From the IMG/VR virus record IMGVR_UViG_2737471818_000009: a stretch of 35,267 nt of DNA; one strand, 5' to 3'. How positions within the stretch are numbered: the first letter of the stretch is position 1; each line of letters starts with the position of its first letter. The DNA comes from a virus (taxonomy: Duplodnaviria; Heunggongvirae; Uroviricota; Caudoviricetes). Both the position numbers and the translations under genes were made by a program. Shown in pieces: positions 1,308-35,267 of this stretch. The notes below the pieces were generated by a model that was not told where the DNA came from, searched no databases, and was given only the letters and a program-made list of their open reading frames with translations.

Positions 1308-1333
1308 GAAAACGCACGACCGGAGCCGTGCGT
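1308..1333 (-). terminator. Rho-independent terminator candidate at the end of the late tail operon
   Basis: Stem acgcacg (1312..1318) / cgtgcgt (1327..1333) with 8-nt loop, followed on the minus strand by TTTTC (plus-strand gaaaa 1308..1312); 43 nt downstream of the last late gene stop. Confidence 0.45.
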
Positions 1334-1375
1334 TGTGTGATGGGGCGTTTATGGGGGGGGCTTTATGCCCGGTGA

Positions 1376-3073
1376 TCAGGCGATAAGGTCACCGTATTTT
1401 TCGCGCAGGCTCGTAGCCTGTTGGGCGTCTGCGGCAAGTTCGCTGCTGTTTGTTGGTGCGCCAGTATTGCTATGGGTATGGTTTGCAGTGTGTGTGGCCA
1501 GCAACTGAACCAGATCCAGAATATCAATCAACAACGTCAGCAGATTAAGTCCGGATTTTTCCCGTGAGCCACCGCGCCCAATAAATACAGTCGGGGCGGT
1601 AAATTCCAGGCCGCCGTCCGCCCGGCATGTTCTGCGGCCTCCCACGTTTTCGGTGAGGTTATGCTCGATGGTGGATGTCGCCCCTTTGAGTTTAGTCAGC
1701 AAATCCTGCGCTACCATCTGGATATGCTCACCGGCTGCGATCGCATAATGGCCAGTAGTAATGTGTTCTGTCTGACCTGTCATCAGCTTGCTGGTTCCCA
1801 GAACGCTGGTTATGTCGTTTGCCTGTACTGTTGTTGTTCTGGTTGTTGTTGTGCGTTCTTCCTGATCGCTGTTAATGGTTCGCCTGGCTGAATGCTCCCT
1901 GATTTGCTGGTCGGTTTCTCTGTGCCAGCTTCCGTCAGTCGTGACACGCTGAAACACCTCTGCGCGCTGTTGTTGCAATTGTTCGCCGGGCTTTACATCA
2001 GGCAAGTTATGACCAGCGGGTAAAATTTGCCTGATAACAGGCTTATCTGGGCGTCCTTCAATGTTGGATATTTCCACGATGGTGCCTGCTGGCGGGTAGG
2101 CAAAACATCCCGCCTCACTGCCAGCCATGGGGACGGGGAGTGGTACTGCCGGGTAAACAGGCGTATCGTTTTTATCGTTGCCGTTCTCATCAAGCAACTG
2201 CACATCGACGGCGTAGCGTGGGCGGAAACTGTCGGCTACATCGCCCAGGGTGACGGATTCCGTTGGGGCAATGACGCGCGCCAGCCGGGTATGAAGAGTA
2301 CCGCTGGCCAGTTCCGGGAACTGTGTTTCCATTTGTCTGCGTAATGGTGATTTGGAAACAGGGCTACCCGTGGCGGTAAGGCGCTCCCATGTCAGGGTCA
2401 TTTTCTCGTTGTTGAGGGCTACACGGGTAATGCGCCCGGCGGGAAGATTCACGCCCGGTCGCACAGTTTCCATAAACATGATGTCGATGCTGTTTCCGCC
2501 GCTTTGCCCGAGTGTGTACTGTTGCGGAATATCCGGCATGGTAATACTGGCAAACCGTGAATCAGCTGCGCTCCCCACAAATACAGAACCGTCCGGCATA
2601 GGGTGCCAGACGTAATCGCTGATACTGAATGCTCGCCCCAGTTGGCTGAGCAGTTGTGCTCCGCTGCCGCTGTGGGTGATGTAGGGAGTTGGTATACCGG
2701 CATAATCCGCATCCGGAGTGATAAAAACGATACCGCTTTGTCGCCCCAGATTATCGAGTACCCCCCGCAGCGTCGGGTGTTGCATGGAGCAGGGGAAATC
2801 AAAATCCAGCACAGCAGCTGCTTCACGGATAAAAAGGCGACGTGAGCCATTTTCAGCAGGTTGATCGCGCTCAATATAGCCGGAGAAATAGCGCCATGCT
2901 TCACCGTCACGACCGAGATCAATTTGTACCATTGCGCCGGCAAGGCTGTGTTCGGGTGACAGATTGTTAACAGAAATGAAGCCACGACCGGCAGCATTCA
3001 GGGTAAGAACAAGGCTTATATCGGCAATTTCCACCCGTTCGCCATTAATCATGCAGCGTTGTATCAATTTCAT
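1376..3073 (-). CDS. Putative baseplate hub/spike-like tail protein (gpD/gp27-like N-terminal region, tentative), 565 aa
   Basis: Last gene of the late operon, ATGA-coupled to the upstream ORF; N-terminal segment (VQIDLGRDGEAWRYFSGYIER) resembles late-control-D/VgrG hub proteins; PAGTIVEISNIEGRPDKPVI resembles a gpV/gp5 OB-fold motif; assignment by eye only. Confidence 0.4.
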   Translation of the reverse strand: MKLIQRCMINGERVEIADISLVLTLNAAGRGFISVNNLSPEHSLAGAMVQIDLGRDGEAWRYFSGYIERDQPAENGSRRLFIREAAAVLDFDFPCSMQHPTLRGVLDNLGRQSGIVFITPDADYAGIPTPYITHSGSGAQLLSQLGRAFSISDYVWHPMPDGSVFVGSAADSRFASITMPDIPQQYTLGQSGGNSIDIMFMETVRPGVNLPAGRITRVALNNEKMTLTWERLTATGSPVSKSPLRRQMETQFPELASGTLHTRLARVIAPTESVTLGDVADSFRPRYAVDVQLLDENGNDKNDTPVYPAVPLPVPMAGSEAGCFAYPPAGTIVEISNIEGRPDKPVIRQILPAGHNLPDVKPGEQLQQQRAEVFQRVTTDGSWHRETDQQIREHSARRTINSDQEERTTTTRTTTVQANDITSVLGTSKLMTGQTEHITTGHYAIAAGEHIQMVAQDLLTKLKGATSTIEHNLTENVGGRRTCRADGGLEFTAPTVFIGRGGSREKSGLNLLTLLIDILDLVQLLATHTANHTHSNTGAPTNSSELAADAQQATSLREKYGDLIA

Positions 3074-3645
3074 GTTTTCCCTTCCTCTTTCACGCTCCCG
3101 ATGCCAACAGCATCCAGACCAGACCCAACGGCATCATTGATTTTTTTCCAGAACGAACTTTGCGTATTCATGCCTTTGTCTGGTGCCTGTTCGCTGCCAT
3201 TCTGGGTCTGCTGTCTGGCGATGTTTTTTTGCGAGCCGCTGCGTGCGGATGCTTTCTCTGGCACGCTTAATTTTTCCCTGAGAGTAAAGGTGATCTGCCA
3301 GTGCATTTTTCCCTGTTGTTCCGTGGCATCAATGCCACCAGAAAATACCCCCTGTCGCATATTGATTGCCTTCGCGGTAGCGTTAGCAATGCGATATGTT
3401 TTTTTGGCTCCGTTGCTTTCTGTTGCCTCCGCAAGCTGAAAAATCCGGGTCAGAATAGCTTCATCGTTAAAATCAATAACCCCCGACACGCGCAGCTCTT
3501 TAGCCTTGTTTCCCTGCTGGGCGCTCGTGGTGCTGGTTGACTGTCCGGACATATCTTTGTCCGGTAGTTGCATGGTGGCGCTGACGGTGATGTTGCGCAG
3601 CAGAATGGCTTCCCCGTCAAGCGCAAGGACAATCATCTGGGTCAT
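3070..3645 (-). CDS. Hypothetical protein, 191 aa, probably tail/baseplate associated
   Basis: ATG at 3643..3645 (alternative 3634..3636); overlaps both neighbours; Ser/Thr/Gln-rich linker; no recognisable motif. Confidence 0.35.
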   Translation of the reverse strand: MTQMIVLALDGEAILLRNITVSATMQLPDKDMSGQSTSTTSAQQGNKAKELRVSGVIDFNDEAILTRIFQLAEATESNGAKKTYRIANATAKAINMRQGVFSGGIDATEQQGKMHWQITFTLREKLSVPEKASARSGSQKNIARQQTQNGSEQAPDKGMNTQSSFWKKINDAVGSGLDAVGIGSVKEEGKT

Positions 3646-4330
3646 GTAGTGCTTCCCTTAGTGATGAGAGATTATCGCCGACGAACAGCATCGCAGCTGT
3701 AAAAACCCACTCTGGGTGTGGGATATTTTTTTGTATCAGCACTGCAGCCTGGCTAAGGGCTCCCTTGTAGCAAAAGCGCCACACCGGGCAAAATTTTTGC
3801 CTGAGTGCGGCCTGCTGATCAGCGATTTCCTGCAGTGCTTTATCTCTCGCATGCATGAACTGATGCAGCGATGATGACAATGTTTCCAGTGATGTGACGG
3901 CAGGAGTGGCTGCCTGTGCAATGGTTGCTGCCAGCGACATGCTGCGAGTGGTCTGTGTCGACAGCATTATCGGTTCCGGAAGTGATGTTACCGGTCTGGC
4001 GGGGATTTGCATTCTGCTGATGGCCAGTGAAAGCTGGCTGGAGATCATGCGGGACATTCGTCCCACCTCTGGCAACGGAAATGCGCCTGAAAATTGCCTG
4101 GCGAGTGATAAAAACTCGCCAGCAGAAGGGGTGCAAAATAACAGCGCTACAATGTCCTTTTCTGTGCTTTCTTTCAGATAGGGTAAAAGTGCAGATACAG
4201 CATTTTTGGGGCTGAGATAACGCCCCGATGGTGTGATGTTTCCGGTATTCTCTGACCACGGATGAAGGCAAACCACAGAACATTTAATGTTCATGGCTGA
4301 CGGGCGCAGAATTGCCTTTTCCCATTTCAT
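3617..4330 (-). CDS. Hypothetical protein, 237 aa, function unknown
   Basis: ATG 4328..4330 overlaps the stop of the upstream tail fibre assembly gene (ATGA coupling); no recognisable motif. Confidence 0.35.
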   Translation of the reverse strand: MKWEKAILRPSAMNIKCSVVCLHPWSENTGNITPSGRYLSPKNAVSALLPYLKESTEKDIVALLFCTPSAGEFLSLARQFSGAFPLPEVGRMSRMISSQLSLAISRMQIPARPVTSLPEPIMLSTQTTRSMSLAATIAQAATPAVTSLETLSSSLHQFMHARDKALQEIADQQAALRQKFCPVWRFCYKGALSQAAVLIQKNIPHPEWVFTAAMLFVGDNLSSLREALHDPDDCPCA

Positions 4331-4902
4331 TGTGGCTCTCCAGCCTGAAAAGCGCGGATGTCGGCAAGATTATTCAGGTTTTCCAGCGCGTCTTTCATCT
4401 CTCGCTGACGTCGAAAAATTTCATCGTTGCGGTTAACCTGCGCCTGCGCCATAGCTGCAGCCAGCTCCTCCAGTTCTGTTATCGACAGTTTCACCTGCTG
4501 ATTATCAGCATCACTCCATGTCATAACGTCCCGCTGCGCTGTGTCAGATCCTGCAGCCATTACCAACGGGTAAAGGCGGGCCAGCGAGTCGGGGCCGGCA
4601 TTCCAGGTGTGACCGTTCCATTCAAACGTGAACGGCTGCGCTTCCTGTTCTGTGCGCCAGGCTTCGATTTCCCGCTTTTTGGCATCTTTTGCCACTGCGA
4701 TAAGTTCCGGCGTGACAGTAAACGGAGCGATTTCGCCCCATCTGCCACTCTGCAGTTCCCGCCAGATTTGCCGGCCCGTTTCTGCTGTATCATTTGCCGA
4801 AGCGGTGTATGGAACCGGCGTTTCCATACCTGAAAACACGACCATGCAGTCAACATCTCCGCTTTCAAGATACCGTTGTTCGCTGATTTTTTTTATTTCC
4901 AT
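4327..4902 (-). CDS. Tail fibre assembly chaperone (second copy)
   Basis: 191 aa, immediately downstream of a tail fibre gene; start overlaps the fibre stop; typical Tfa size and position. Confidence 0.65.
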   Translation of the reverse strand: MEIKKISEQRYLESGDVDCMVVFSGMETPVPYTASANDTAETGRQIWRELQSGRWGEIAPFTVTPELIAVAKDAKKREIEAWRTEQEAQPFTFEWNGHTWNAGPDSLARLYPLVMAAGSDTAQRDVMTWSDADNQQVKLSITELEELAAAMAQAQVNRNDEIFRRQREMKDALENLNNLADIRAFQAGEPQ

Positions 4903-6947
4903 TACATCGTCCTTATAAAGGCTGCAATAATGAACTCACCTTCTCCGGTGTAATCCGGTGTCCCGGAAAGTGCGCGGTAAACGCCTGGCAGTGTGTGTTT
5001 CTCTGCACCAGAAAGTCCAATTTTCGGCGACGATAACGCCCCTTCCGCAACACTGAATACTACAGGTGTCAGGGCGGAGCCCGGATAATATTGCCCTCGT
5101 CTGATACTGACCGTTTTATTACTGCCTCTGCCCTGAAGAGCTGCCAGCGTTATGCTTCCTGTATATGGGTCACCATAATCATCATTTGTGGTCCTGCTCA
5201 GAATTTGCGTAATATCATTCTGGTCAATATTTATTTTCCCCCACTCACTCAGTGAAGGACCATGTATGGCATCGTATGTTGCCCGGTACAGTTCACCGTT
5301 CATCCCGTAAAAAACAGCCATCTTCAGCATTACCGGGACAGTAAGGTTATTCCGCATCTCATCGGCAAAAAATAAATCAATCACACCTGTAAACTGTACT
5401 TCCGGTATAATTTCGCAGTCTGCGCTGACCGTATACCGCCCCGGTGTGGCATTTGAGATCCAGTCAAGAAGCACTTCCTTCGACGAAAAGCTGAGAACGT
5501 CACCTTTTGTGAAGATATGCCCGAATCCCAGACTGCCTGCAACTGCAGCCCGTCCCGGCGTTCTGTCATAAATGTCTGACTGGAGCTCATAATTTCCGCC
5601 CGATGCTGAATTTCCACTATTTCCACTGATACCCAGAACGTCACACATCTCTTCGGCTGTGGATTGTGACAGCAGCTGTTTCCCTTTTTCAGAAACAGGA
5701 ACCAGAGAACACTGCCCGTCACCGGTAAAACCGGGAAAACCGCTCCCGTCAGAAGGAAGATTACCTAACGCAGTCAGAACGGGACTTAACGGCTGTTTTC
5801 CGGCCAGCGCGTTCATCATTGTTGTCGCAAAGCTCGGGTCATTACCCAGCGCCTCCGCCAGTTCGTTCAGCGTGTCCAGGGCTTCCGGTGATGAATCAAC
5901 CAGTGCAGCAAGTAGTTTGCGGACAAACGCCGCATTAGCTATTTCATTACCTGCTGCATCATCCGGTGGTGTTGGCGTGGACGGCGTTCCAGTCAGCGCC
6001 GGGCTGTTCAGTGGGGCGCGGGTTTCAATCAGTGCCCGGAGTGTAGCCTCGTTGACTTTAAGGTTTTCCCAGCCAACCAGATAACCATCTCCGGTAGTCC
6101 AGTATCGGTTGTAATAAATATGGCCGTTAATACCGCAGAAAATAATAACTTTAGCTACATATGCCGGATTAGGATTGGTCTGATGTTCCGGCCAGATAAT
6201 TTCAATAGTGCCGCTGAACAGGACTTTAGGAATGATTTTATCTGCACCATAAACGATATAACGACCAGGTGTTGCCGTTTTTACCCACAGTAGAAAATCA
6301 GCCTCCGTTTTAAACTCGATCCTGTCACCACTGGAAAATATTTTCCCGAACCCGAACATGCCCGGAATTGCCAGACGGCCCGCGGTACGATCGTGGGTAC
6401 CGTCCTGCGACTCCATTGTGGCTGCGCTTTTTAGTCCAAGATTATCGCGGGATTCCTGCTGTGCTTCCGCGCCTGCTGCCGCAATTTCTGACAGATGGTT
6501 TGGAGCTTTCAACATTGTTTTCAGTTCCGGATAAATATCCACTTGCCAGCTTTGTGGGGGTACGGTGATTTGCGCAGACCGTGCTATGCCCTGATAAGTA
6601 ATCGTGAAGTTTCTGATCAGTGACTCGCCGGCATGTTTCTGTCTGACAGGTGTTTTTATTACGCCGCATAATGTTCCGCTGGCCTGATGAACCAGGCAAA
6701 TCCAGTCATAGCTGAATGCACAGTCATCAGGGACAACCGCGCTACACACAATATTGTTCGGGCTTAACTGGCCGTAGGTCAGTTCATTCACAGCATATGT
6801 GATTTTTTCTTCCGGAACGGTATTATCTTCGCGCGTTGGTTCCCGCTCCATCAGGGCAAAAATAATAGCGTCAGGGCGTGCAGGCAAATTACTGGCTGTG
6901 CATTCCGCAACCCACTTTTCAAATGCTTTCGTCAACAGTGCGCTCAT
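4902..6947 (-). CDS. Tail fibre protein (second fibre, 681 aa)
   Basis: N-terminus (MSALLTKAFEKWVAECTASNLPARPD) parallels that of the first fibre; Gly/Ser-rich repeats; followed by a Tfa gene. Confidence 0.7.
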   Translation of the reverse strand: MSALLTKAFEKWVAECTASNLPARPDAIIFALMEREPTREDNTVPEEKITYAVNELTYGQLSPNNIVCSAVVPDDCAFSYDWICLVHQASGTLCGVIKTPVRQKHAGESLIRNFTITYQGIARSAQITVPPQSWQVDIYPELKTMLKAPNHLSEIAAAGAEAQQESRDNLGLKSAATMESQDGTHDRTAGRLAIPGMFGFGKIFSSGDRIEFKTEADFLLWVKTATPGRYIVYGADKIIPKVLFSGTIEIIWPEHQTNPNPAYVAKVIIFCGINGHIYYNRYWTTGDGYLVGWENLKVNEATLRALIETRAPLNSPALTGTPSTPTPPDDAAGNEIANAAFVRKLLAALVDSSPEALDTLNELAEALGNDPSFATTMMNALAGKQPLSPVLTALGNLPSDGSGFPGFTGDGQCSLVPVSEKGKQLLSQSTAEEMCDVLGISGNSGNSASGGNYELQSDIYDRTPGRAAVAGSLGFGHIFTKGDVLSFSSKEVLLDWISNATPGRYTVSADCEIIPEVQFTGVIDLFFADEMRNNLTVPVMLKMAVFYGMNGELYRATYDAIHGPSLSEWGKINIDQNDITQILSRTTNDDYGDPYTGSITLAALQGRGSNKTVSIRRGQYYPGSALTPVVFSVAEGALSSPKIGLSGAEKHTLPGVYRALSGTPDYTGEGEFIIAAFIRTM

Positions 6948-6953
6948 TACTTC

Positions 6954-7505
6954 TTAATTCTCGCTAATGTTCTGCGGTAATTCTGGCCATACAATCGCGG
7001 CATACGATGCTCTATCTGTAACCTGGCTGAATGTCATCTCCCGTAACGTTTTTGTATAAATACGGCAGGCTTTCAGTTTTTCCCTGTCTTCGTCGCTGAT
7101 TAATCCCAGCAGCAGATCTTTTTCCCATTCGCTGGTCATGATGCTGACCTGTTTTAACAGTGCATCACGCTCATCTTCCGCTTTAAGTTTGTAGTCGAAA
7201 ACAAATTCATCATTGCGGTAAAACCAGTAACCCGGTGCGGTAATGCGGCGGTTAGCGGTAATATCAGGAACTTCAATAACACTGGCGTTACGGGGTTCAA
7301 TGCCTGTCACATCCTTACCGACCCACACCACGCGTCCGTCTCCGGTGTAAACCATTTTTATGGTGTCACTGGTAAAGTTCTTCTGTTCTTCATACCAGTT
7401 TTTGCCGTCTTCCGAAAAAAGCCAGGTGACATCATATTGTTTTGTCAGCTGATATTGTTCCGCGGTTTTCGGATTACCCGCAGTAATACTTTTTAAATGC
7501 AACAT
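6954..7505 (-). CDS. Tail fibre assembly chaperone (first copy)
   Basis: 183 aa directly downstream of the first tail fibre gene. Confidence 0.65.
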   Translation of the reverse strand: MLHLKSITAGNPKTAEQYQLTKQYDVTWLFSEDGKNWYEEQKNFTSDTIKMVYTGDGRVVWVGKDVTGIEPRNASVIEVPDITANRRITAPGYWFYRNDEFVFDYKLKAEDERDALLKQVSIMTSEWEKDLLLGLISDEDREKLKACRIYTKTLREMTFSQVTDRASYAAIVWPELPQNISEN

Positions 7506-7507
7506 TG

Positions 7508-9208
7508 TTAAACACTCGCCACGTTATACCAGGTGCCATTAATCAGTTTCTGAAGCGGTCGGTAATACACGCCGCCGATGTTATCCGCCGAATTACTTCC
7601 GGTTTCCTGCACATTAATGCCGGATAACCCGTGGCCTGAAGGTGAGCGAAATGTCCAGGATATCTGGTTACCTCCCGGGTTGTAATACATTTCGGAACCG
7701 TACCTTACATCCTGCACTCCCTCTGTTCGCTGCTTATACCTGGCATCAAAGTTTCCGTAATCTGACGGCGTTACCCGACCGGAAGTGTTCATGGCCCTGT
7801 TACTTTGTAACGTCCCGTTCTGAAAACGGAATATATGCTGGCCGTTGGCATAAATATCCAGCAGACCGTCGCCATTCTGCTTTATACCCGTATCGTTATC
7901 CCCGAAAGCAATTGAGTTTCCGCCCAGCGCGTTCTGAACGCCGATACCCAGCGCACCATTCACCTGAGAACCGCCACCAACAGACACTTTATGCGACATG
8001 GATATTTCACCCGTCCGCAAATTAATAGTGAACGGACGCAGGGGGCCAATATCGCCGTTTTCGCCCTGATTTTCCCGGGTGGGAATAAGATGCAGGCACT
8101 CTTCAGAACGACGAAAAATCAGGCCAAAAGCTTCGTTGAAAATCCTCAGTGCATTAACACCACGGATTTTCAGCTCCCCGGTCATGGTGTCGCCGTCGCG
8201 CTCAACAGCGTCTTTTGCTTTATCCATTGCGGCTTTTACTGCCTTTGATGTGGCGGCGCGGTCTTCTGCGTCGCTGTCGGTGGAGTTGCTGTACTGCGCA
8301 AAGCCTTTCTCCTTCAGTGTTGCGTCCGGATGATGGCGGGATTTTTCGTGCTCTGCCAGTGCATTGCTTTGTTCTTCGTCGGGTGTCTCCGGGCGCAGGT
8401 CCTGTGGGCCGTCTCCTGTCATTTTTGCAAGTGGCGCGACAAAGTGTCGGAAGCCGTTACCGTCTGTATAAGACGCATGTTCCTGGCGGGCGCAAAACGT
8501 AAAAACGGTATTCCATTCGCCGGTAACAAATCCCTGCCAGCTTGCATCAATCCAGAGGGTATCCCCGACCGCAGCCGGCAGGCTGTAAGGTTCGCGCAGA
8601 CTGACGCGCAGACCTCCCACATAACCCACGCCGGCGGCAACAGTAGCGGTACCGTCCTGATAGCTGACCTGAAAACCATCCCCCAGAAAAGCGGCTTCAC
8701 CGTAGTGATCAAACGCCAGCAGCCGGCGGGCCTCATCCATTCCTGCAAGGCGTGCAGTGAAATCAATCTGCCAGACATCAGCGCTGACATCGATATGCAT
8801 TGCTGCGGCTGCGCCGTCAAACTCCATGGAAAATGTGCGGATCAGGTTGTTTCCCTGCACGCCGTTCGCTGTTTTAATTTTTTGCTGACGAGGTGTGTGT
8901 GCAATCATGCAGAGCACGCCGCTTTCTTCGTTCAGCAGGCCGATCCAGTTGTATTCGAAGTCGCCGACTGTCGTGTCCAGAATGATGGAAAACGCGGTCG
9001 CGTTCGGGGACAGGAGGCCGTACTGGGTGACCGGCGCACGATACTGAATCATGGATTCATCAGGGAGTATCTCATCGCGGGGGATCTCTGCGGATTCATC
9101 CTGTCCCGGAATATATGCAAAAACAAATGTATCCGGGCGCGCAGGTTTTCCACTGATGATTTGATTTGCGCACCAGTGTTCGTACTGTTCAGTAATAATC
9201 GTGCTCAT
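7508..9208 (-). CDS. Tail fibre protein (first fibre, 566 aa)
   Basis: N-terminus MSTIITEQYEHWCANQIISGKPARPD related to the second fibre; internal SNSTDSDAEDRAATSKAVKAAMD block typical of myovirus tail fibres; ATGA-coupled to the upstream baseplate gene. Confidence 0.75.
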   Translation of the reverse strand: MSTIITEQYEHWCANQIISGKPARPDTFVFAYIPGQDESAEIPRDEILPDESMIQYRAPVTQYGLLSPNATAFSIILDTTVGDFEYNWIGLLNEESGVLCMIAHTPRQQKIKTANGVQGNNLIRTFSMEFDGAAAAMHIDVSADVWQIDFTARLAGMDEARRLLAFDHYGEAAFLGDGFQVSYQDGTATVAAGVGYVGGLRVSLREPYSLPAAVGDTLWIDASWQGFVTGEWNTVFTFCARQEHASYTDGNGFRHFVAPLAKMTGDGPQDLRPETPDEEQSNALAEHEKSRHHPDATLKEKGFAQYSNSTDSDAEDRAATSKAVKAAMDKAKDAVERDGDTMTGELKIRGVNALRIFNEAFGLIFRRSEECLHLIPTRENQGENGDIGPLRPFTINLRTGEISMSHKVSVGGGSQVNGALGIGVQNALGGNSIAFGDNDTGIKQNGDGLLDIYANGQHIFRFQNGTLQSNRAMNTSGRVTPSDYGNFDARYKQRTEGVQDVRYGSEMYYNPGGNQISWTFRSPSGHGLSGINVQETGSNSADNIGGVYYRPLQKLINGTWYNVASV

Positions 9209-9840
9209 GCTTCATCTGCCTGTAATGTGTAATGTTCCACGGACAGGCCGTAATGTCCTGCCTGTAGCGAAGCGGTTAACCAGATGGTATCCTTTCTCAC
9301 AGTTGCTTCTGCTGTGTGATACCTGTAATGGCCATCGAATGTGCCGGCTGTCATCCGGGCAGTGGTTGTATTGATTACCTGAAAGAAATAGCGCCTGCAG
9401 GTACGACCATACTGGCGCACGAGCTGCATCATCAGCGCGTTGTTTTCACTTAACTGGGTGTCATTAATGCGCAGTAAAATAACGTCCCAGTCATGCTGCA
9501 GTTGCCGTTCCAGTGTTTTAACGTCTCCCACGCCAAGACGCTTAAAGATGCGTTCGAAGCCGGCGCGTTCGCCCGAGTCCTGAGCGTTAATAAACGCGTG
9601 TTTCACTCTTAAGCGAAATAACGAAACCGGCTCACCTTTAAATCTGGTGATATTGCGCTGATAAGCCAGCAGGTTAAGTAAAGGCTCTGCGCAGGTGTCG
9701 ACATCAATCTGCTGTAGTGGCCACGTCAGCCAGCTGTATACCTTTTCCCAGTAGCGATGCGATGAATGTGCCAGCGTTAACGGCTCGCCTTTATTCATCC
9801 AGGTGGGGAGCGGGAATTCAGGGATCTCCGGAAGTTTCAC
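9205..9840 (-). CDS. Baseplate/tail protein, P2 gpI-like
   Basis: 211 aa between the J-like gene and the tail fibre; position 9838..9840 is GTG (internal ATG at 9796..9798); family assignment by eye. Confidence 0.55.
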   Translation of the reverse strand: MKLPEIPEFPLPTWMNKGEPLTLAHSSHRYWEKVYSWLTWPLQQIDVDTCAEPLLNLLAYQRNITRFKGEPVSLFRLRVKHAFINAQDSGERAGFERIFKRLGVGDVKTLERQLQHDWDVILLRINDTQLSENNALMMQLVRQYGRTCRRYFFQVINTTTARMTAGTFDGHYRYHTAEATVRKDTIWLTASLQAGHYGLSVEHYTLQADEA

Positions 9841-13450: not shown

Positions 13451-13452
13451 TA

Positions 13453-13989: not shown

Positions 13990-13995
13990 GTAAAA

Positions 13996-14441: not shown

Positions 14442-14446
14442 TGCTG

Positions 14447-23808: not shown

Positions 23809-23809
23809 T

Positions 23810-23835: not shown

Positions 23836-23873
23836 AATCGGCGGCAGTAAAACGCTGTTCCGGGAGGTGGAAA

Positions 23874-24131: not shown

Positions 24132-24153
24132 CTGACGCGCTTCGCTTGTCCAA

Positions 24154-24199
24154 CCCGGAACGGGCACACAAAGAATTTGCGCACCCGTTCCGGGTTTTC
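24154..24199 (+). terminator. Rho-independent terminator shared by the convergent ogr and rrf2-like genes
   Basis: Perfect 11-bp inverted repeat cccggaacggg (24154..24164) / cccgttccggg (24184..24194) followed by ttttc. Confidence 0.6.
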
Positions 24200-25187: not shown

Positions 25188-25191
25188 TGAT

Positions 25192-26151: not shown

Positions 26152-26180
26152 GTCGCTTTTCCTTATGTTGATTAATTAAT

Positions 26181-26288
26181 CGTTTACGGGATTTTTAAAT
26201 CCCGTTTTTGCCTGTTTTATGCGCGCTTCATATATCGCGGCGCGTTTTTTGCTCATTTACGGGATTTGTGAATCCCGTTTCTGTCTGT
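26181..26288. repeat. Two ~38-bp direct repeats with 20-bp palindromic cores upstream of parM (parC-like centromere/operator candidate)
   Basis: ACGGGATTTTTAAATCCCGT at 26186..26205 and ACGGGATTTGTGAATCCCGT at 26259..26278, each in a tttacggg...cccgttt..ctgtttt context; the second copy lies in the last codons of gene A. Confidence 0.45.
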
Positions 26289-29053: not shown

Positions 29054-29439
29054 GGCTGGTATCCCGTCACGCGCTGCCACTCCTGCGAGAAGATGGCGGA
29101 AAGGCGGTTAAATTCAGCGGTGTATTCACTCAGCGAGGCACACCCGCCAGCAGTGCGATGCGCCAGCATTGCCGCGAATACGGAGGCCGGGGAGTCGTAA
29201 TACGCCAGCAGTGATTCGCCGTGTGGTGTCAGGCAGTGCAACGCCAGCCCGTGTGGTGTGAAGTCCACGCGGTAGCAGTCGTCTACTGTGAAATAAAGGG
29301 TGTCCGCATTCTCCGGTTTTGTAGTGCGTGCTCTGTTGTCACGACCACGGATGTAAAGATCAAATAATCCCTGAAGAACGGGAGCCAGACGGGTGTCCTG
29401 TGTGCGCACCCATCTTGTGAAGTCATGAGCGTCAATCAT
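29050..29439 (-). CDS. Hypothetical early protein, 129 aa
   Basis: ATG 29437..29439; stop overlaps the A start; no recognisable motif. Confidence 0.4.
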   Translation of the reverse strand: MIDAHDFTRWVRTQDTRLAPVLQGLFDLYIRGRDNRARTTKPENADTLYFTVDDCYRVDFTPHGLALHCLTPHGESLLAYYDSPASVFAAMLAHRTAGGCASLSEYTAEFNRLSAIFSQEWQRVTGYQP

Positions 29440-29511
29440 GCTGCAATTCTCTTTACTACAGATGTGCGAAGGCCTCCCGCCGCAAGGTGCAGGAAAGGCC
29501 CGGAACAGGAA

Positions 29512-29742
29512 TTAATGGAGTTTGTTTTGCTGCTGGATGAGCTGCTGAAGCTCGCGCAGATCATCCGCCAGATAGCTGAAAACAGCGGATGAATAGAGGT
29601 TTGAAAGTTCGCAGCTACGCTCATGCAGCATATTGATGTGCATGATTTTAGCGACGCGGAATGCGCGGGAAAGTCTGCGGTTGATTTCAGTCTGGATGTG
29701 ACGACGCTCCGCGATAGCGCGGTGCTGTTTGCGGTTTGCCAT
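29512..29742 (-). CDS. Hypothetical early protein, 76 aa, basic
   Basis: ATG 29740..29742; first ORF downstream of a 370-bp structured noncoding region. Confidence 0.35.
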   Translation of the reverse strand: MANRKQHRAIAERRHIQTEINRRLSRAFRVAKIMHINMLHERSCELSNLYSSAVFSYLADDLRELQQLIQQQNKLH

Positions 29743-29921
29743 GGTGTGGCCTCGTGTATAGTAAGTTTTGAAAACTCACCATCCAGAGGTGGAAAACTCG
29801 GGGTGGTGAGACGTACAGGGTTTCCACAACCGGCTATACACGAACCCGGCCCGACCGAAGTCGGCCCCATACGCCCCACCATAATTCTGACGCGAAAAAG
29901 ACGTGGCGATACGGTACGCAC

Positions 29922-29942
29922 AAAAAAACCGCTGGCGCGGTT
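29922..29942 (-). terminator. Rho-independent terminator candidate in the early region
   Basis: plus-strand aaaaaaa then accgc tggc gcggt; on the minus strand the hairpin is followed by a run of T. Confidence 0.35.
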
Positions 29943-30109
29943 GTGCGCGTGTATAGTCAGCGGGGTGGAAATCCCGGCACCCGTTTTATGAGGTGCAGCG
30001 GAAATGTAACCTGACTGATTGCGGCATGGCAAGCGGTTTTTTTGTGAGAACGGCATACTAAAAAATCCTGATGCTGCTCCGGCCAGCGGTTTCCACTGGC
30101 CGGGTTTAA

Positions 30110-30940
30110 TTACTTCACCGGAACAAACGGAACAGCGGTATTACTGGTCATGTATTGCGGCAGCGTGCCGTTCCATTTGTTGATAGCTTCCAGCTCCATA
30201 ACGCCGGGGTTCTGGCGCAGAGCTTCACCGCGCAAACGAATGGCGTCGGCTTCAGCCTGGGCTTTTGTGCGAATGGCATCAGCCTGTCCGGCTGCTTCTG
30301 CGCGTAGCATGTTGGCTTCTGCTTCGCGCTGCTTGACTTCCTGTTCGCGTTGCAGAGTTTTCTGGTTTGCCGTGACTTTGGCATTAATGCTGTCGATAAC
30401 GGTTGGTGGGTATTCCGGTTTACCGACATAAGAGAGGCTCATTACCTGAATGCCGATAGGTGTCATTTCTGCCTGAATGTCTTTAAGTGCTGAATCCAGC
30501 AGTTCAGACTTGCCGCCGTCGATAAATTTATCGGTGGTCATTTTGCTGGCCAGTCGGTTGAGTGCGTCGGCGATCTTCTGGCGCAGGTCAGTGTCGGTAA
30601 TGTCATCCACGCCTTTGCGGTAGGTCTGAAACACTGTAGTAACTTTGGATGGATCAACCTTGTAGGCCACACCGATGTGATAGCCGATGGTTGTGCCGTC
30701 ACTCATCTGAAAGCTGAACGGCTCATCGTAGGTCTTCATTTGTTTGAAGGTTGGGAAGATGTAAACCTCTGTATTCCAGCCTGTCCAGTAGCGGCCAACG
30801 CCAACTACTTCGCCGACGCCTTTGTCGTCGCCCAGCTTGTTGACTTTGATGCCCACATTACCTGGCTCAACGCGATCGCAACCAACCAGCAGGATGGCGG
30901 CAAAAAGCGGGAGAATCTGAAAGAGTTTGAATTTCTTCAT
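30110..30940 (-). CDS. SPFH/band-7 (stomatin/prohibitin-like) lipoprotein
   Basis: 276 aa; signal peptide with lipobox LLVGC; SPFH-like core; C-terminal Ala/Glu/Gln-rich coiled-coil (QREQEVKQREAEANMLRAEAAGQADAIRTKAQAEADAIRLR). Confidence 0.75.
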   Translation of the reverse strand: MKKFKLFQILPLFAAILLVGCDRVEPGNVGIKVNKLGDDKGVGEVVGVGRYWTGWNTEVYIFPTFKQMKTYDEPFSFQMSDGTTIGYHIGVAYKVDPSKVTTVFQTYRKGVDDITDTDLRQKIADALNRLASKMTTDKFIDGGKSELLDSALKDIQAEMTPIGIQVMSLSYVGKPEYPPTVIDSINAKVTANQKTLQREQEVKQREAEANMLRAEAAGQADAIRTKAQAEADAIRLRGEALRQNPGVMELEAINKWNGTLPQYMTSNTAVPFVPVK

Positions 30941-31140
30941 TGTTTGATTTCCTTGATGTACTTACTGAAAAGGCGAACAACGCCTGCCGGGTACAGCATG
31001 GCAATGAAAATGCCCAGCAATACCAGGAAGGAGCTGTCTGATGAAATCATTCGGGGGAGTAGTCCTGCATACAGAATGAGAGAGACGAGGACGCATACCA
31101 GCGCCCACATGTATGCGCGAAACCAGGTCTTTTTGTTCAT
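30937..31140 (-). CDS. Small membrane protein (two TM segments) coupled to the SPFH gene
   Basis: 67 aa, two hydrophobic helices; its stop overlaps the SPFH start (ATGA). Confidence 0.5.
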   Translation of the reverse strand: MNKKTWFRAYMWALVCVLVSLILYAGLLPRMISSDSSFLVLLGIFIAMLYPAGVVRLFSKYIKEIKQ

Positions 31141-31151
31141 ATCGCGGTCCT

Positions 31152-31451
31152 TTACTGGTTAAGGAAAAAATCGAAAACGTTGTCGATGCGTTGCAGCAGC
31201 TCCTGCTGCATTGCTTCCGGCGTTTCTGATTCACCTGGTGACTCCAGCGTCGCGCAAAAATCCTTGATTTCATGATGGAGCGTCAGACGAATGGCAGGAG
31301 CCGTGGTTCTGGCGTGCTCCAGCTCATCCAACAGTGCCAGCACAGCAGACGGCGAGAGCATTGCGCGAAACGCCAGTAATTTTTGATGCGTTGCCATTCG
31401 TTGCAGGGCAAATGCCAGTTCGCGTAGCTTCTGGTGGTTGATGGTGCTCAT
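31152..31451 (-). CDS. Hypothetical early protein, 99 aa
   Basis: ATG 31449..31451; helical, no recognisable motif. Confidence 0.35.
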   Translation of the reverse strand: MSTINHQKLRELAFALQRMATHQKLLAFRAMLSPSAVLALLDELEHARTTAPAIRLTLHHEIKDFCATLESPGESETPEAMQQELLQRIDNVFDFFLNQ

Positions 31452-31537
31452 GCTCTGGCTTCCTTCAGTAGCTGGTTAAACATGTGAGTAAGTGGATTGC
31501 TACACCCGAACGGCATCGGGTTTACGTGGTAAGAAGC

Positions 31538-31714
31538 CTAGCCTCCTGTTTTGCGAGCGCGACCACCTGTGCTGCGGTTTGTTCTGATGACTAAGCCGCC
31601 GCGCCAAAGTCGGCGTAACTCAGCATTAATGGCTGTGGTTGGGGTATTCAGTGCTGCGGCGATTTCTCCACCGCTACACCCCGGATTGGCGGCGATATAG
31701 TCCAGAATGGTCAT
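31538..31714 (-). CDS. Hypothetical small protein (58 aa), possibly DNA-binding
   Basis: ATG 31712..31714 with AGGAG RBS; basic C-terminal tail; the track ORF start at 31774 is probably over-extended. Confidence 0.3.
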   Translation of the reverse strand: MTILDYIAANPGCSGGEIAAALNTPTTAINAELRRLWRGGLVIRTNRSTGGRARKTGG

Positions 31715-31739
31715 CTTCGTGGCTCCTGTACCCTGATCG

Positions 31740-31940
31740 TTAGTTGCCTGCTTTTTTGCGCAGAACCTGTACATACATCACGTTAGTAGCCGTGTAATGC
31801 TTCCCGTTCTTAAGCCAGATGTGATGAATACCGGGCTCGCTGCGGGAGGGGGCTGTTCTGTCGTGATCGATCAGGCTGTCTTCCACGTCGTATTCAATGC
31901 CGCCCGATGTGAAATGTACGGTTAAGAATGATTTGATCAT
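31740..31940 (-). CDS. Hypothetical early protein, 66 aa
   Basis: ATG 31938..31940 with AGGAG RBS 7 nt upstream. Confidence 0.3.
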   Translation of the reverse strand: MIKSFLTVHFTSGGIEYDVEDSLIDHDRTAPSRSEPGIHHIWLKNGKHYTATNVMYVQVLRKKAGN

Positions 31941-31968
31941 CGCTGTGCTCCTTTGGTTTTTCATGGGG

Positions 31969-32382
31969 TTATGCGTTAAATGGGGAAGAGGTTGCTATGT
32001 CGATGAACGCAATCCGGTCGCGTCTGATGATGTGTACATCACTCAGCGGTTCGCTCTCATTTGCCGGAACCGCAGCAATCATGTAGCTCCCCTGCAGGTC
32101 TGCCAGGATGATGTATTCCTGTTGTGGGTTGTTGATGATAAAGACCCGTTTCCCAATGCTGGGGGAAGAAGTGTTGGTGCCGGCTAATTGAGCTTTGAGA
32201 GTGCTGATTTCGTTGTTCAGGCTTTCAATAAGTCCAGCAGCACTTGCGGTGACTTCTGCTATAGCCATTGAACGAACATAAAAGGGAATAAGCCCTTCTC
32301 TCAGTGCCTGCCTGGCTAATGCATCTTCCATTTCTGATATTTTTTTCAGTTTGGTGATGGTGACTGTATCTTTAGCGTTCAT
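31969..32382 (-). CDS. Hypothetical early protein, 137 aa
   Basis: ATG 32380..32382; no recognisable motif. Confidence 0.35.
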   Translation of the reverse strand: MNAKDTVTITKLKKISEMEDALARQALREGLIPFYVRSMAIAEVTASAAGLIESLNNEISTLKAQLAGTNTSSPSIGKRVFIINNPQQEYIILADLQGSYMIAAVPANESEPLSDVHIIRRDRIAFIDIATSSPFNA

Positions 32383-32474
32383 TTTGTATCCTCGTTATTT
32401 GTGTGTGCGAATACCTCCGCGAGTGCGGATTGTTTTCACGTTTTCTTGTTTAATGTGGTGTTTTATTTGTGCTG

Positions 32475-32588
32475 TTATTCGTCAGAGAAAAAACGCTCAA
32501 TCTTTTTCACTGAATGAATAATTCGCATAATCCCAATAGCGCAGGCCACCGAAATAATCAGAACAAGCCATGAGATAAATATGCTCAT
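32475..32588 (-). CDS. Small hydrophobic peptide (37 aa, single TM), not in the ORF track
   Basis: Hand translation MSIFISWLVLIISVACAIGIMRIIHSVKKIERFFSDE; its ATG overlaps the stop of the upstream 80-aa ORF (ATGA). Confidence 0.35.
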   Translation of the reverse strand: MSIFISWLVLIISVACAIGIMRIIHSVKKIERFFSDE

Positions 32589-32827
32589 GCGATATTCCCC
32601 AGGTTATACGGTTCAATGTGGTCCCCGTTTTCTGCGGCGCAGACGAGTATGGAAAGCTCGTCGAGCGCGTCCGGATCGTCAATGTAAAAAGCCGTGTCGT
32701 ATATACTCTTGATGGCCCTGGTCAATGACTCTTGAGCTGCGCGTTCAGCATGAGTGCCTGATGCGCTTAAGCGAAAATGAAAGCGCTCAAGTGCTTTATT
32801 GACGAGAGTTTTATATTCTTTATCCAT
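32585..32827 (-). CDS. Hypothetical early protein, 80 aa
   Basis: ATG 32825..32827; acidic. Confidence 0.3.
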   Translation of the reverse strand: MDKEYKTLVNKALERFHFRLSASGTHAERAAQESLTRAIKSIYDTAFYIDDPDALDELSILVCAAENGDHIEPYNLGNIA

Positions 32828-32838
32828 CGCAACGCCCT

Positions 32839-33117
32839 TTAATCTGCCTTCTGGATTTCTGCTTCTGAATCCATGCAGATAATTTCGATATATGGTTCAT
32901 CGCCATTAACCTGACGTGCTTTTTCAGCTTCGCTAATAATTTCGCGTACGGTCTGGTACGGAAGTTCCACAAACAATCGCGTGCCGTTCAGATAAAGGTA
33001 AGTAGCCACATCTTTTGCTGCCGGGACTACAGCATCAATAGCCGATGCGCGTAATAACAGTTCACCGCGAAAATCAATAAAACGGATAAATACACCTTGT
33101 GCATGCTCTTTGGTCAT
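32839..33117 (-). CDS. Hypothetical early protein, about 93 aa
   Basis: ATG 33115..33117 chosen to avoid a 50-bp overlap with the upstream gene; the track gives 33177. Confidence 0.3.
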   Translation of the reverse strand: MTKEHAQGVFIRFIDFRGELLLRASAIDAVVPAAKDVATYLYLNGTRLFVELPYQTVREIISEAEKARQVNGDEPYIEIICMDSEAEIQKAD

Positions 33118-33127
33118 AAAGCACCTG

Positions 33128-33469
33128 TTATAAATCAGCCTGTTTAATAAAACTTTGCCCGCGAAGCAGACGATCAACCGTGCGTAGTGCTTCGTATAAT
33201 GTGAAATCCTGCCCGAACTGATTGTCGCCGCAGCTCAATGCAAAAATGCGGTTTCCGGTAAACGGATTGCGTGGGCATTTGTGAACCACGATTCCAGCTT
33301 TCTCAATCAGCCAGGCATGCTCGCCGATTTGTTTTACAGCGTGGCCATCCGGTGTTGCGTGTGTTTCGCTCAGGCTGTAGCGAGAGCTGCTGCGTGATGC
33401 ACTGGTGGCGAAACGGTTAGCGTGGCGTTCAGCCCCATTACGAAAGCGTGAATTACGTTGCTGTTTCAT
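33128..33469 (-). CDS. Hypothetical early protein, 113 aa, first gene after cox
   Basis: ATG 33467..33469; basic N-terminus; no recognisable motif. Confidence 0.35.
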   Translation of the reverse strand: MKQQRNSRFRNGAERHANRFATSASRSSSRYSLSETHATPDGHAVKQIGEHAWLIEKAGIVVHKCPRNPFTGNRIFALSCGDNQFGQDFTLYEALRTVDRLLRGQSFIKQADL

Positions 33470-33487
33470 ATCAAAACTCCCTGCATC

Positions 33488-33814
33488 TCATGCAGCAAAA
33501 TTAAGGAAGCCTAATCCCAAATCTTCCGCCAGCTTCTTGGCTTTATTAAGCCAGTGGTTGCGCCAATCTTTACGCTCAGGAGGAAGCTGTTTCGTTGCGT
33601 CATAGACCATTTCGAGCCACTCGTTCCATAGAATGAGAAGGCGGCGTGAACTTCCTTCCTCGCCTAAAACTTCACGCTCAGTGGCCAGAGGGATGAGTCG
33701 ACGTTCCACCAACTTTCTTACGGCTGATTCGGTCTTGCCCGTGCGGCGAGCAAATTCATCGACGGTGATGGCGTCTGGGATCTTAAACAATGCCCTCAAT
33801 AGTTCTTCATTCAT
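33488..33814 (-). CDS. cox: Cox-like excisionase / early-operon regulator
   Basis: 108 aa, divergent from C; EFARRTGKTESAVRKLVERRLIP and WNEWLEMVYDATK...RKDWRNHWL parallel the architecture of P2 Cox (recalled). Confidence 0.65.
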   Translation of the reverse strand: MNEELLRALFKIPDAITVDEFARRTGKTESAVRKLVERRLIPLATEREVLGEEGSSRRLLILWNEWLEMVYDATKQLPPERKDWRNHWLNKAKKLAEDLGLGFLNFAA

Positions 33815-33908
33815 GTGATAATCTCCCTGTTTGGGGTATAGGTGAGATATTTACCCCATAGTTCAACTCATTGTTTGCATAATGCACTACATATTTGGAG
33901 AATGCAAT
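33815..33908. promoter_or_regulatory. Divergent Pe/Pc-type immunity switch region between cox and C
   Basis: 94-bp intergenic region between divergent genes; inverted repeat TGGGGTA (N14) TACCCCA; GGAG RBS for C. Confidence 0.5.
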
Positions 33909-34211
33909 ATGATTTTGGAGATTGGTGAAAAACTAAAACTAATGCGTGAAAGTGAGCGCATTACAAGTCGCAATGAGGCTGCGGAGTTAATAGGTATTCC
34001 GCATAACGCGCTATGGCGTTATGAGACTGGCGAATCCATACCCAAAGGGGATGTAATGATGAAAATCTTAAATTGTCCGCGGTTCGAAAAATATGCCTTG
34101 TGGTTTATGACTGGAAAAATTGCGCCTGAATCCGGGCAGATAGCTCCGGCTCTCGCACACTATGGGCAAGAGCCAACGGATTTACCCCCATCCGAAAGGA
34201 AAATTGGTTAA
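33909..34211 (+). CDS. C: Immunity repressor C (P2 C family)
   Basis: 100 aa from ATG 33909; C-terminal GDVMMKILNCPRFEKYALWFMTGKIAPESGQIAPALAHYGQ closely matches P2 C as recalled; the track start at 33882 is probably over-extended. Confidence 0.85.
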   Translation: MILEIGEKLKLMRESERITSRNEAAELIGIPHNALWRYETGESIPKGDVMMKILNCPRFEKYALWFMTGKIAPESGQIAPALAHYGQEPTDLPPSERKIG

Positions 34212-34277
34212 CCCTTTATTATTCTTACGTTTTACAAACTGGAAATGTCTTTCCTCGTTTCACCGGAGGGCTTGCCA

Positions 34278-35267
34278 ATGGCAATTAAAGCGCTCGATGG
34301 TGGACGGTATAAAGTGGATGTTAGACCGCGTGGCCGAAGTGGACGTCGGATTCAGCGGATTTTTAAGAAAAAGGCAGATGCAGTGGCCTTTGAGCGTTAT
34401 GTTCTCAGCCACATGCACGATAAGGAATGGCTTGAAAAGCCAACAGAGCAACGTCATCTCTCAGATCTGCTTCCGTTATGGTGGGAATTGGGTGGACGCA
34501 ATAAGCCATATGCTAACGGCGTTCTAACCAGGTTGAAAAAAATCATCAAAGAAATGAATGATCCAAGGGTTAGCCAGATTAATGCTCGTTTCATGGCAGC
34601 TTATCGAAGCTCCCGTTTATCCTTGGGAGTAAAAGAGTCTACTGTTCGGCGTGATGAGTCGGATCTCGGAGGAATGTTTACACTCTTGGCAAATGCCGGA
34701 GAATTTCACGGAGAAAATCCACTCCGCGCCCTCCCCTCTTTGAAACGAAAATCACCCGAAATGACGTACCTCACTACGGAAGAAATCGCCAAATTGCTGG
34801 ATGCAGTAAGCGGTGATGCTCGGCGGATTACGCTACTTTGTCTCAGTACTGGGGCGAGATGGGGAGAAGCGAAAAATCTGCGCGCGGAACACATCATCAA
34901 TAATCGCGTGACGTTTAACAAAACTAAAAACGGAAAAGTTCGAATTATTCCTGTCTCTGATGAAGTTGTTAGTGAGATCAAAACAAAGAAATCCGGCCTT
35001 TTGTTTGACGTCAATTATGAGGAATATCGCAAGGTGCTTCGCAGTGTTAAGCCAGACCTACCAAAAGGACAGGCTGTACATGTTCTACGCCATACCTTTG
35101 CTGCTCACTTTATGATTAATGGAGGAAATATACTTACGCTCCAGCGAATTATGGGGCACGCCACGATCCAGCAAACTATGACCTATGCGCACCTCGCTCC
35201 TGATTTCCTCCAGGATGCAATTTCACTTAATCCGTTAAAAGGAGGCATCCACATTTCATCCACATAA
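34278..35267 (+). CDS. int: Tyrosine integrase (P2 Int family)
   Basis: 329 aa from ATG 34278 (GGAGGG RBS); N-terminus MAIKALDGGRYKVDVRPRGRSGRR like P2 Int; C-terminal catalytic motifs HVLRHTFA and MTYAHLAP; stop codon is the last codon of the window. Confidence 0.9.
   Translation: MAIKALDGGRYKVDVRPRGRSGRRIQRIFKKKADAVAFERYVLSHMHDKEWLEKPTEQRHLSDLLPLWWELGGRNKPYANGVLTRLKKIIKEMNDPRVSQINARFMAAYRSSRLSLGVKESTVRRDESDLGGMFTLLANAGEFHGENPLRALPSLKRKSPEMTYLTTEEIAKLLDAVSGDARRITLLCLSTGARWGEAKNLRAEHIINNRVTFNKTKNGKVRIIPVSDEVVSEIKTKKSGLLFDVNYEEYRKVLRSVKPDLPKGQAVHVLRHTFAAHFMINGGNILTLQRIMGHATIQQTMTYAHLAPDFLQDAISLNPLKGGIHISST

Follow-up and report, generated by a model that had tools for sequence, protein, structure and literature searches.

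An HP1-group late region joined to a Xuanwuvirus-type early region in an Escherichia coli prophage

The stretch analysed here (the window; 35,267 nt, IMG/VR record IMGVR_UViG_2737471818_000009, with coordinates referring to the whole stretch) very probably represents a complete-looking temperate myovirus prophage of Escherichia coli, which belongs to the HP1 group of Peduoviridae (the P2-like phages) and in which the late module of that group is joined to a different early module. The gene layout was derived from a listing of open reading frames (ORFs) and from Pfam scans. By sequence comparison, the mosaicism lies between the late and early modules, with the fibres and cargo genes as additional pieces, and not between head and tail. 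The original prediction for this DNA, made from the sequence alone, had described P2-like head, lysogeny and replication modules combined with a tail from a different contractile-tail lineage. It placed the exchange between head and tail genes and missed the exchange that is visible here, that of late versus early region.

The "HP1-like viruses" were defined by Lavigne et al. 2009, and the cos site of the group was placed next to attP (PMC2771037). In a 2023 analysis of the family, the HP1 group comprises Hpunavirus, Longwoodvirus and Seongnamvirus, and the P2 subgroup comprises Peduovirus, Eganvirus and Xuanwuvirus (PMC10612066, Table 2).

Head and tail genes of the late region

Sheath and capsid rank their relatives equally. 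In tblastn surveys of 50,697 phage records, both proteins found the ESSI-2 group first (55-59%; 55-57% for the sheath), followed by phiO18P, Pasteurella phages, HP1/HP2 and K139-like vibriophages. Module means, expressed as identities per query length, were obtained for the two parts of the virion:

Six head genes: ESSI-2 44%, HP1 39%, K139 40%, P2 26%, 186 22%, P88 18%
Twelve tail-core genes: ESSI-2 43%, HP1 34%, K139 31%, P2 1%, 186 0%, P88 1%

All twelve tail-core genes had matches in ESSI-2 and K139 and 11 of the 12 in HP1, against none or one in P2, 186 and P88. At the BLAST level, two weak partial matches were the exceptions, S in P2 and the tape measure in P88 (27% over 39%), and the likeness of R, S, J and I to P2 is confined to the level of Pfam families. 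Among the head proteins, P is 53-57% identical to its counterparts in ESSI-2, HP1 and K139 versus 35-43% in P2, 186 and P88, and N is 59% identical to that of ESSI-2 versus 28-29% for P2/186. DNA identity to ESSI-2 (67-77% by blastn) occurs in patches across both head and tail. Because head and tail share their nearest relatives and the patches of ESSI-2 similarity span both, the history of this genome itself shows no discontinuity at the boundary of L and R, and the proposed head/tail exchange finds no place in it.

The head and packaging genes are the following.

22774-23808, + strand: portal Q (Pfam Phage_portal)
20994-22781, + strand: terminase large subunit P (Pfam Terminase_5/6N/6C)
19909-20799, - strand: scaffold O (Pfam Phage_GPO)
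18881-19894, - strand: capsid N (Pfam Phage_cap_P2)
18153-18863, - strand: M (Pfam Phage_term_smal)
17560-18117, - strand: L (Pfam Phage_GPL)

The P2-family head and packaging block is thus present, with Q-P divergent from O-N-M-L and the Pfam families in order. The earlier view that these genes follow P2/186 in sequence holds for the families, which are the same, but not for the identities, which are only 21-43% to P2/186 compared with 33-59% to ESSI-2, HP1 and K139. Tail, baseplate and lysis genes continue leftward from L.

17077-17550, - strand: R-like tail completion protein (Pfam P2_Phage_GpR; 41% identical to ESSI-2)
16367-17080, - strand: S-like tail completion protein (Pfam Phage_tail_S; 41% identical to ESSI-2)
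15199-16347, - strand: contractile sheath (DUF2586, E 2e-127; PHROG 907 "tail sheath")
14747-15202, - strand: HP1-type tail tube (Pfam Phage_HP1_Orf24, E 1e-50)
14447-14743, - strand: holin, 98 aa (hydrophobic segments and a charged tail; the homologous ORF in a Citrobacter relative, L009, has Phage_holin_3_2)
13996-14337, - strand: M15 endolysin (Pfam Peptidase_M15_4; 77% to the ESSI-2 group)
13638-13931, - strand: tail assembly chaperone (Pfam Phage_TAC_10)
13450-13596, - strand: DUF6890 small ORF (annotated in strain A2 and in L009)
11354-13450, - strand: tape measure (Pfam PhageMin_Tail)
11014-11364, - strand: DUF2590 wedge gene (Pfam DUF2590)
9837-11024, - strand: J-like wedge gene (Pfam Baseplate_J; 61% to the ESSI-2 group)
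9205-9840, - strand: I-like wedge gene (Pfam Tail_P2_I, weak)
6954-9208, - strand: fibre cassette 1, with fibre 7508-9208 and assembly protein 6954-7505 (Pfam Phage_tail_fib, Phage_fiber_2, Caudo_TAP)
4327-6947, - strand: fibre cassette 2, with fibre 4902-6947 and DUF4376 protein 4327-4902 (Pfam Phage_tail_fib N-terminal domain, DUF4376)
3617-4330, - strand: orf33-like tail/baseplate protein (24-32% to the syntenic ESSI-2, HP1 and K139 genes; PHROGs 31292 and 1677)
3070-3645, - strand: HP1 ORF34-family baseplate complex protein (Pfam PF25759 HP1_ORF34, E 1e-53; 51% to ESSI-2, 47% to HP1)
1376-3073, - strand: orf35-like baseplate hub/spike, a VgrG-like fusion (PHROG 2258 "baseplate protein")

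The late order of the window is therefore Q-P / O-N-M-L-R-S-sheath-tube-holin-endolysin-chaperone-tape measure-DUF2590-J-I-fibres-orf33/34/35. As the ORFs and Pfam matches confirm, the tail gene order that had been read from the sequence (R-like, S-like, sheath, tube, lysis, chaperone, tape measure, baseplate, fibres, hub-like genes) is real, and so is the position of the lysis genes inside the tail operon, with holin and endolysin (13996-14743) between tube and chaperone. Comparison of annotated records revealed a gene-for-gene identical late order in Haemophilus HP1 (Hpunavirus), Vibrio K139 (Longwoodvirus) and Cronobacter ESSI-2 (Seongnamvirus), and in all three the lysis genes occupy the same place. 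All elements of the HP1 late order are present, from R, S, sheath and tube through lysis, chaperone, tape measure, wedge and fibre to orf33-35. The original prediction had named two findings that would speak against it: tail proteins grouping with P2 FI, FII, T, J and I were not observed, whereas a gene order matching described P2-family genera was.

At the gene level, the wedge genes (DUF2590, J and I) are 55-67% identical to ESSI-2 and 48-57% to HP1 and have no BLAST match in P2, 186 or P88, and the genes from tape measure to chaperone are 36-44% identical to their ESSI-2, HP1 and K139 homologues. The tail matches the HP1 group better than the P2 subgroup, which is the distinction used in Table 2 of PMC10612066, and the families HP1_ORF34, Phage_HP1_Orf24, DUF2586 and DUF2590 are all represented. 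The organization of the P2 subgroup is absent, i.e., the FI/FII/E/T/U/D and V/W/J/I/H/G operons, lysis genes between L/X and R, and ogr beside att. Likewise, neither the transposase-based replication nor the Mu-type head and tail of Mu-like phages was found; Mu shares only fibre and fibre-assembly proteins, and no Mu-like lineage is involved. Taken together, these comparisons mark the ~23 kb of the late region, bounded by the cos-like site (~1.2 kb) and ogr (24.1 kb), as a single HP1-group virion and lysis module that is coherent and was inherited vertically.

At the genus level, the ICTV rule is at least 70% nucleotide identity over the genome length. Only ~12% of the window bases are identical to ESSI-2, which places it outside Seongnamvirus. 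It also falls outside Xuanwuvirus, since the ~22% of bases identical to P88 lie only in the early region and the hok locus and the late region is of the other type. A megablast search of the 50,697 phage records gave no match for the late region, and the combination of modules is absent from the deposited phage genomes.

The early region and its junction with the late region

The replication module between ogr and cox is of the Xuanwuvirus (P88) type.

24873-33469, - strand: early/replication module, with ParR-like, ParM, A, C4-like and isrK RNAs, SPFH lipoprotein, MarR, DUF4754 and DUF4761 (Pfam/Rfam)
26228-29080, - strand: gene A, 950-aa GPA replication protein (85% identical to P88 A)
24571-24876, - strand: small ORF, junction cargo
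24200-24625, - strand: Rrf2-family regulator, junction cargo (Pfam Rrf2)

Three DNA blocks are shared with P88 at 88-94% identity by blastn (25035-28732, 29420-31732 and 32403-33448), and the proteins from ParM to DUF4761 are 79-100% identical to those of P88. A megablast search with 24000-35267 against phages returned P88 and other Xuanwuvirus-type phages at 92-93% identity. Gene A, which had been thought to follow P2/186, is 85% identical to its P88 counterpart and 30-35% identical to every other reference (31-35% to P2/186). The late region of P88, by comparison, is of the P2 type.

The left breakpoint of the shared DNA lies inside the ParR-like gene, and ~1,290 E. coli genomes lose homology to the query at ~24,990-25,045. 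Of 5,426 complete E. coli genomes, 36 (~0.7%) carry the full portal-ogr-Rrf2-ParR-ParM junction intact, and it is contiguous at 99.5% identity in a finished chromosome. A Citrobacter chromosome whose sheath is 87% identical has the same ogr/ParR/ParM junction, and an E. coli sister lineage with a 76% identical sheath carries other genes between A and ogr. The junction cargo, i.e., the Rrf2 gene and the small ORF, is absent from the equal position in P88, ESSI-2 and HP1. Recombination of regulatory with structural regions is documented for P2-like phages (PMC3448106), and the family analysis found little evidence of exchange involving HP1/P2 tail modules (PMC10612066). We tentatively propose, at somewhat under an even chance, that the lineage is a recent and still-circulating chimera across the deepest split of the P2 family, combining an HP1-group virion module with a Xuanwuvirus early module, and that the late block acts as a portable cassette that is swappable because it has its own cos, terminase and Ogr-like activator, with the dyad described below, at its borders.

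Several observations concern the content of the early region. ParM and ParR (StbA / Plasmid_stab_B; 24873-26151, - strand) form an actin-type partition system, and 1,292 of the 5,426 complete genomes of E. coli contain DNA homologous to ParMR, nearly always in the chromosome. Rfam detected a C4 antisense RNA (29799-29886, - strand, 77 bits) adjacent to the Hfq-binding RNA isrK (29922-29996, - strand, 63.5 bits), both just upstream of a 76-aa ORF (29512-29742); the P88 homologue of this ORF bears the annotation "derepression protein". By analogy, this layout recalls a P1 immI-like or anti-repressor control module; a 206-aa ORF at 29436-30056 is probably spurious. The SPFH/Band-7 lipoprotein (30110-30940, - strand) is 100% identical to the P88 protein and is found in Shiga toxin phages at 92-93% DNA identity.

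The lysogeny switch follows at the right end, and a small toxin gene lies at the left end.

33488-33814, - strand: cox (Pfam Phage_Cox)
33882-34211, + strand: C repressor, a 109-aa P2 C-type helix-turn-helix protein (Pfam HTH_3)
34245-35267, + strand: int (Pfam Phage_integrase)
401-541, - strand: Hok/Gef-type small toxin, 46 aa (ORF and translation; left-end cargo)

C and Int are 58% and 54% identical to P2 versus 36% and 49% to P88, and no CII gene was found in the window by Pfam or BLAST. At the left end, positions 281-715 have 86% DNA identity to the hok/mok region of P88. Positions 1-877 are variable among prophages that are otherwise 97% identical: the window has the hok/mok locus and Mu com/mom-like DNA, and in strain A2 (L001 9565-13063) the place is taken by a YafO toxin, an ATP-dependent nuclease and the remnant of a methyltransferase. 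In this, the left end resembles a variable hotspot of moron or defence genes lying between cos and att.

The E. coli strain A2 prophage is 97% identical to the window over 878-28732 and is inserted between raiA and pheL. In that copy, the large terminase gene is frameshifted and the second fibre gene disrupted (L001 33274-35062 and 17652-19235), both being intact in the window; going by these lesions, some copies of the prophage lineage are decaying. The window contains one set of each essential function, without duplicates of int, A or terminase, and a tRNA scan of the window found no tRNA genes.

Packaging site, late control and virion proteins

Three elements outside the structural genes bear on packaging and late transcription.

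1189-1249: probable cos region, with the motif GCGGGTTGGAGGGGGGAGCGCGG at 1189-1211 and then three TTTACGT repeats at 1212-1249
23805-24131, + strand: Ogr/Delta-type zinc-finger late activator, directly 3' of Q (Pfam Ogr_Delta, E 1e-12)
20883-20908: dyad TTTCGGATAT-N6-ATATCCGAAA in the divergent O/P control region, perfect and unique in the window, with none expected by chance

The motif GCGGGTTGGAGGGGGGAGCGCGG aligns with the joined ends of the ESSI-2 record, which has a 15-nt terminal repeat, and with those of the K139 and HP1 records, in which cos is annotated. Because of this alignment with genome ends, cos is probably at ~1189-1249, between the tail genes and the prophage end, which is the HP1 arrangement and would put it away from Q/ogr. 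Three of the eight TTTACGT copies in the window are clustered at 1212-1249. A search of the window for the 19-nt cos of P2, allowing up to 3 mismatches, gave no match, and a P2-type cos was rejected. The ogr gene had been assigned a place beside cos and away from att. It does lie away from att, directly after Q, but probably not beside cos, given the cos-like motif at 1189-1249 and the lack of a P2-type cos.

The Ogr-like protein is 44% identical to the ESSI-2 regulator at the equal position and 46% identical to K139 orf13, and it has no BLAST match to P2 ogr or 186 B. In ESSI-2 and K139, too, a zinc-finger regulator beside the portal gene belongs to the standard layout. The dyad is shared by K139, by the Citrobacter relative (L009) and by an E. 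coli relative (L011), occurs in a related form in HP1, and is absent from P2 and P88, which makes it a candidate binding site of the Ogr-like activator. The P2-type operator TGT-N12-ACA was uninformative, with 7 copies versus 8.2 expected and none in the O/P control region. A promoter and terminator scan of the late region was also uninformative, as it contained fewer promoter-like sites than shuffled sequences and many weak hairpins. Most likely, one activator-dependent divergent control region with a single dyad would drive both late transcripts, of which the rightward one would include P, Q and perhaps ogr, and the leftward one would be a 19-kb operon from O to orf35. The Ogr-like activator gene would then travel with the late module.

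The AlphaFold model of the sheath (predicted local distance difference test, pLDDT, 72.5) matches solely contractile sheath structures, namely DSY3957, diffocin CD1363, Lin1278, phage 812, PVC and Milano (E 1e-9 to 1e-4). The model of the orf35-like protein (pLDDT 66, with a confident N-terminal half and a low-confidence C-terminal half) matches the central spikes of the extracellular contractile injection system (eCIS)/PVC type, VgrG of the type VI secretion system and the Mu gp44 hub (E 1e-16 to 1e-9), which bears out the earlier label "hub-like genes". Because the template modelling scores of these matches are low (0.3-0.45), they give the fold class and not the closest tail lineage. The sequence of the orf35-like protein is 45% identical to ESSI-2 gp01, 38% to HP1 orf35 and 31% to K139 orf39. 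According to the model, hub and spike are fused in this one gene, whereas P2 D and V are separate. A sequence search of the PDB found no match for the sheath or the orf35-like protein, and hhalign with a 4-sequence DUF2586 alignment against P2 FI and Mu L found nothing, a weak negative given such shallow alignments. A remote link between HP1-type and P2 FI/Mu L sheaths is present in published HHpred work; a literature search for "DUF2586" found no papers.

In the lysis cassette, no spanin was recognised in the window after the endolysin gene, where ESSI-2 and HP1 carry one. A perfect hairpin with a 13-bp stem (GCTTAATAAGCCT...AGGCTTATTAAGC) lies at 13958-13989 (- strand) between the endolysin and chaperone genes and may serve as an attenuator or as a site of processing inside the long late operon.

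Segments of the fibre genes are also found in phiP27 (cassette 2, 86% DNA identity), P2 H/G, P88 and Mu U', and the counterparts of the fibre assembly protein (6954-7505) in P2 (G), P88 and Mu (U') show 42-46% identity to it. The two tandem fibres are homologous in their N-terminal domain for baseplate attachment (35% over 168 aa), whereas their distal parts are unrelated and their partners differ (Caudo_TAP versus DUF4376). This dual layout is kept in the Citrobacter (L009) and E. coli (L011) relatives and not in ESSI-2, HP1 and K139; no invertase gene is present at the dual fibre cassettes (4327-9208). The tandem arrangement suggests dual receptor specificity.

Alternative explanations and comparison with known systems

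Several points weigh against the preferred reading, an HP1-group late module joined to a P88-type early module. The O scaffold is about equally far from both subgroups (33-38% versus 34-36%), with full coverage only in HP1 and K139. The 186-type CI/CII switch, which is typical of the HP1 group though not strictly defining (HP1, HP2, K139), is lacking; HP1, K139 and ESSI-2 use that switch and the window a P2-type C, so it is not textbook HP1-like outside the late region. The position of cos, the late dyad and the two-operon model are derived from conservation. The agreement of head and tail is based on ranked identities to seven reference genomes and two tblastn surveys. Finally, the copy in strain A2 has a frameshifted terminase gene.

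A P2/186-type phage might have kept its head, lysogeny and replication modules and recently swapped in a Mu-like or other tail, with the break after L. Such a history would account for a tail core that, barring the weak S and tape measure matches mentioned above, has no BLAST match in P2, 186 or P88, for the failure of hhalign to link the sheath to P2 FI, and for C and Int being closest to P2. However, it is already contradicted by the module means, in which the head proteins are closer to HP1-group phages than to P2/186; moreover, the divergence from ESSI-2 is uniform across the boundary of L and R, the same order occurs in three described genera, and Mu shares nothing but the fibre assembly protein. 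We consider a recent swap highly improbable. Even less credible, to the point of being negligible, is an artefact, whether from misassembly or from reading as one element two prophages that are adjacent or decayed, one of them P88-like and the other ESSI-2-like. P88-type early regions are common, as the frequency of ParMR-homologous DNA (1,292/5,426 genomes) illustrates, and adjacency or a misjoin is conceivable on that account; yet the essential functions form a single set with int, A and terminase unduplicated, and the junction is found at 99.5% in a finished chromosome, in 36 complete genomes and with the same layout in Citrobacter.

A more serious possibility, although we lean somewhat against it, is that a P2-like ancestor at the root of the HP1 group gained an older contractile-tail paralogue, more than 1 billion years ago by published timetrees, and that the present prophage inherits the result. 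This is compatible with an HP1-group late module joined to a P88-type early module and concerns the whole group. The published analysis found the tail divergence between the HP1 and P2 subgroups to be far deeper than the head divergence and read it as an ancient gain of an older tail paralogue at the HP1-group root (PMC10612066, sections 3.11, 3.12 and 4.2). The window fits with this, in that the head keeps 18-26% identity to the P2 subgroup against ~0% for the tail core, and in that hub and spike are fused into a VgrG-like protein, P2 D and V being separate. However, faster evolution of tail genes could give the same pattern; R, S, J and I still fall into Pfam families named after P2; and HHpred usually pairs HP1 and P2 tail proteins before T4 or Mu (PMC10612066). 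The much deeper divergence of tail than of head between the subgroups is real, and is a property of the whole HP1 group and not of this window.

With the HP1-group late module and P88-type early module as our preferred reading, a P2 head followed by a tail of non-P2 type is what one branch of the P2 family, already described, normally has, and it is no sign of a new hybrid. The HP1-group lineage is resident in E. coli and Citrobacter, at ~0.7% of complete E. coli genomes, without a deposited phage genome; ESSI-2-like prophages have been reported as scarce in E. coli (PMC6969025). As the prophage shows, early modules move between the two deep subgroups of Peduoviridae, which bears on prophage typing, on taxonomy by genome identity and on the engineering of P2-family phages with alternative tails.

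Among known systems, ESSI-2 and the Escherichia phages ESSI2_ev015/040/129/239 (Seongnamvirus) are the closest in the late region. They have the identical late order, in which an ogr-like gene follows the portal gene and an M15 endolysin gene follows the tube gene, give the best protein matches (capsid 59%, sheath 56-57%, J 61%, terminase 57%, endolysin 77%), and in ESSI-2 the cos-like sequence is at the same place. However, the early region of ESSI-2 is wholly different, with a 186-type CI/Cox/CII switch, a methyltransferase and a shorter A protein, and unlike the window it has a single fibre cassette and an annotated spanin. The founding "HP1-like viruses" HP1/HP2 (Hpunavirus) and K139 (Longwoodvirus) share the orf15-orf35 order, with hol and lys between tube and tape measure; HP1 and K139 share the DUF2586, Orf24, DUF2590 and ORF34 families, and K139 also has the late dyad and the Q-adjacent zinc-finger gene. 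They differ in protein identity (24-57%), in their hosts, in their CI/CII-type switch and in the lack of ParMR.

P88 and its relatives (Xuanwuvirus) share the early block from ParR/ParM through A to DUF4761 at 88-94% DNA identity, and the hok region is also common to both. The late region of P88 is P2-type: the lysis genes X-Y-K follow L, and V-W-J-I-H-G and FI-FII-E-T-U-D are present. Where a match exists, the head proteins of P88 are 25-36% identical (L has no match), and its immunity and integrase differ from those of the window. P2 (Peduovirus) and 186 (Eganvirus) share with the window the Q-P / O-N-M-L block with divergent promoters, GPA-type replication, the int-C-cox arrangement and an Ogr/Delta-type activator. 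However, their tail genes are unrelated at the BLAST level, the tail operon structure is another one and the lysis genes lie elsewhere. The late promoters of P2 are four in number, with TGT-N12-ACA sites; its ogr is beside att and its cos beside Q, and hub (D) and spike (V) are separate genes.

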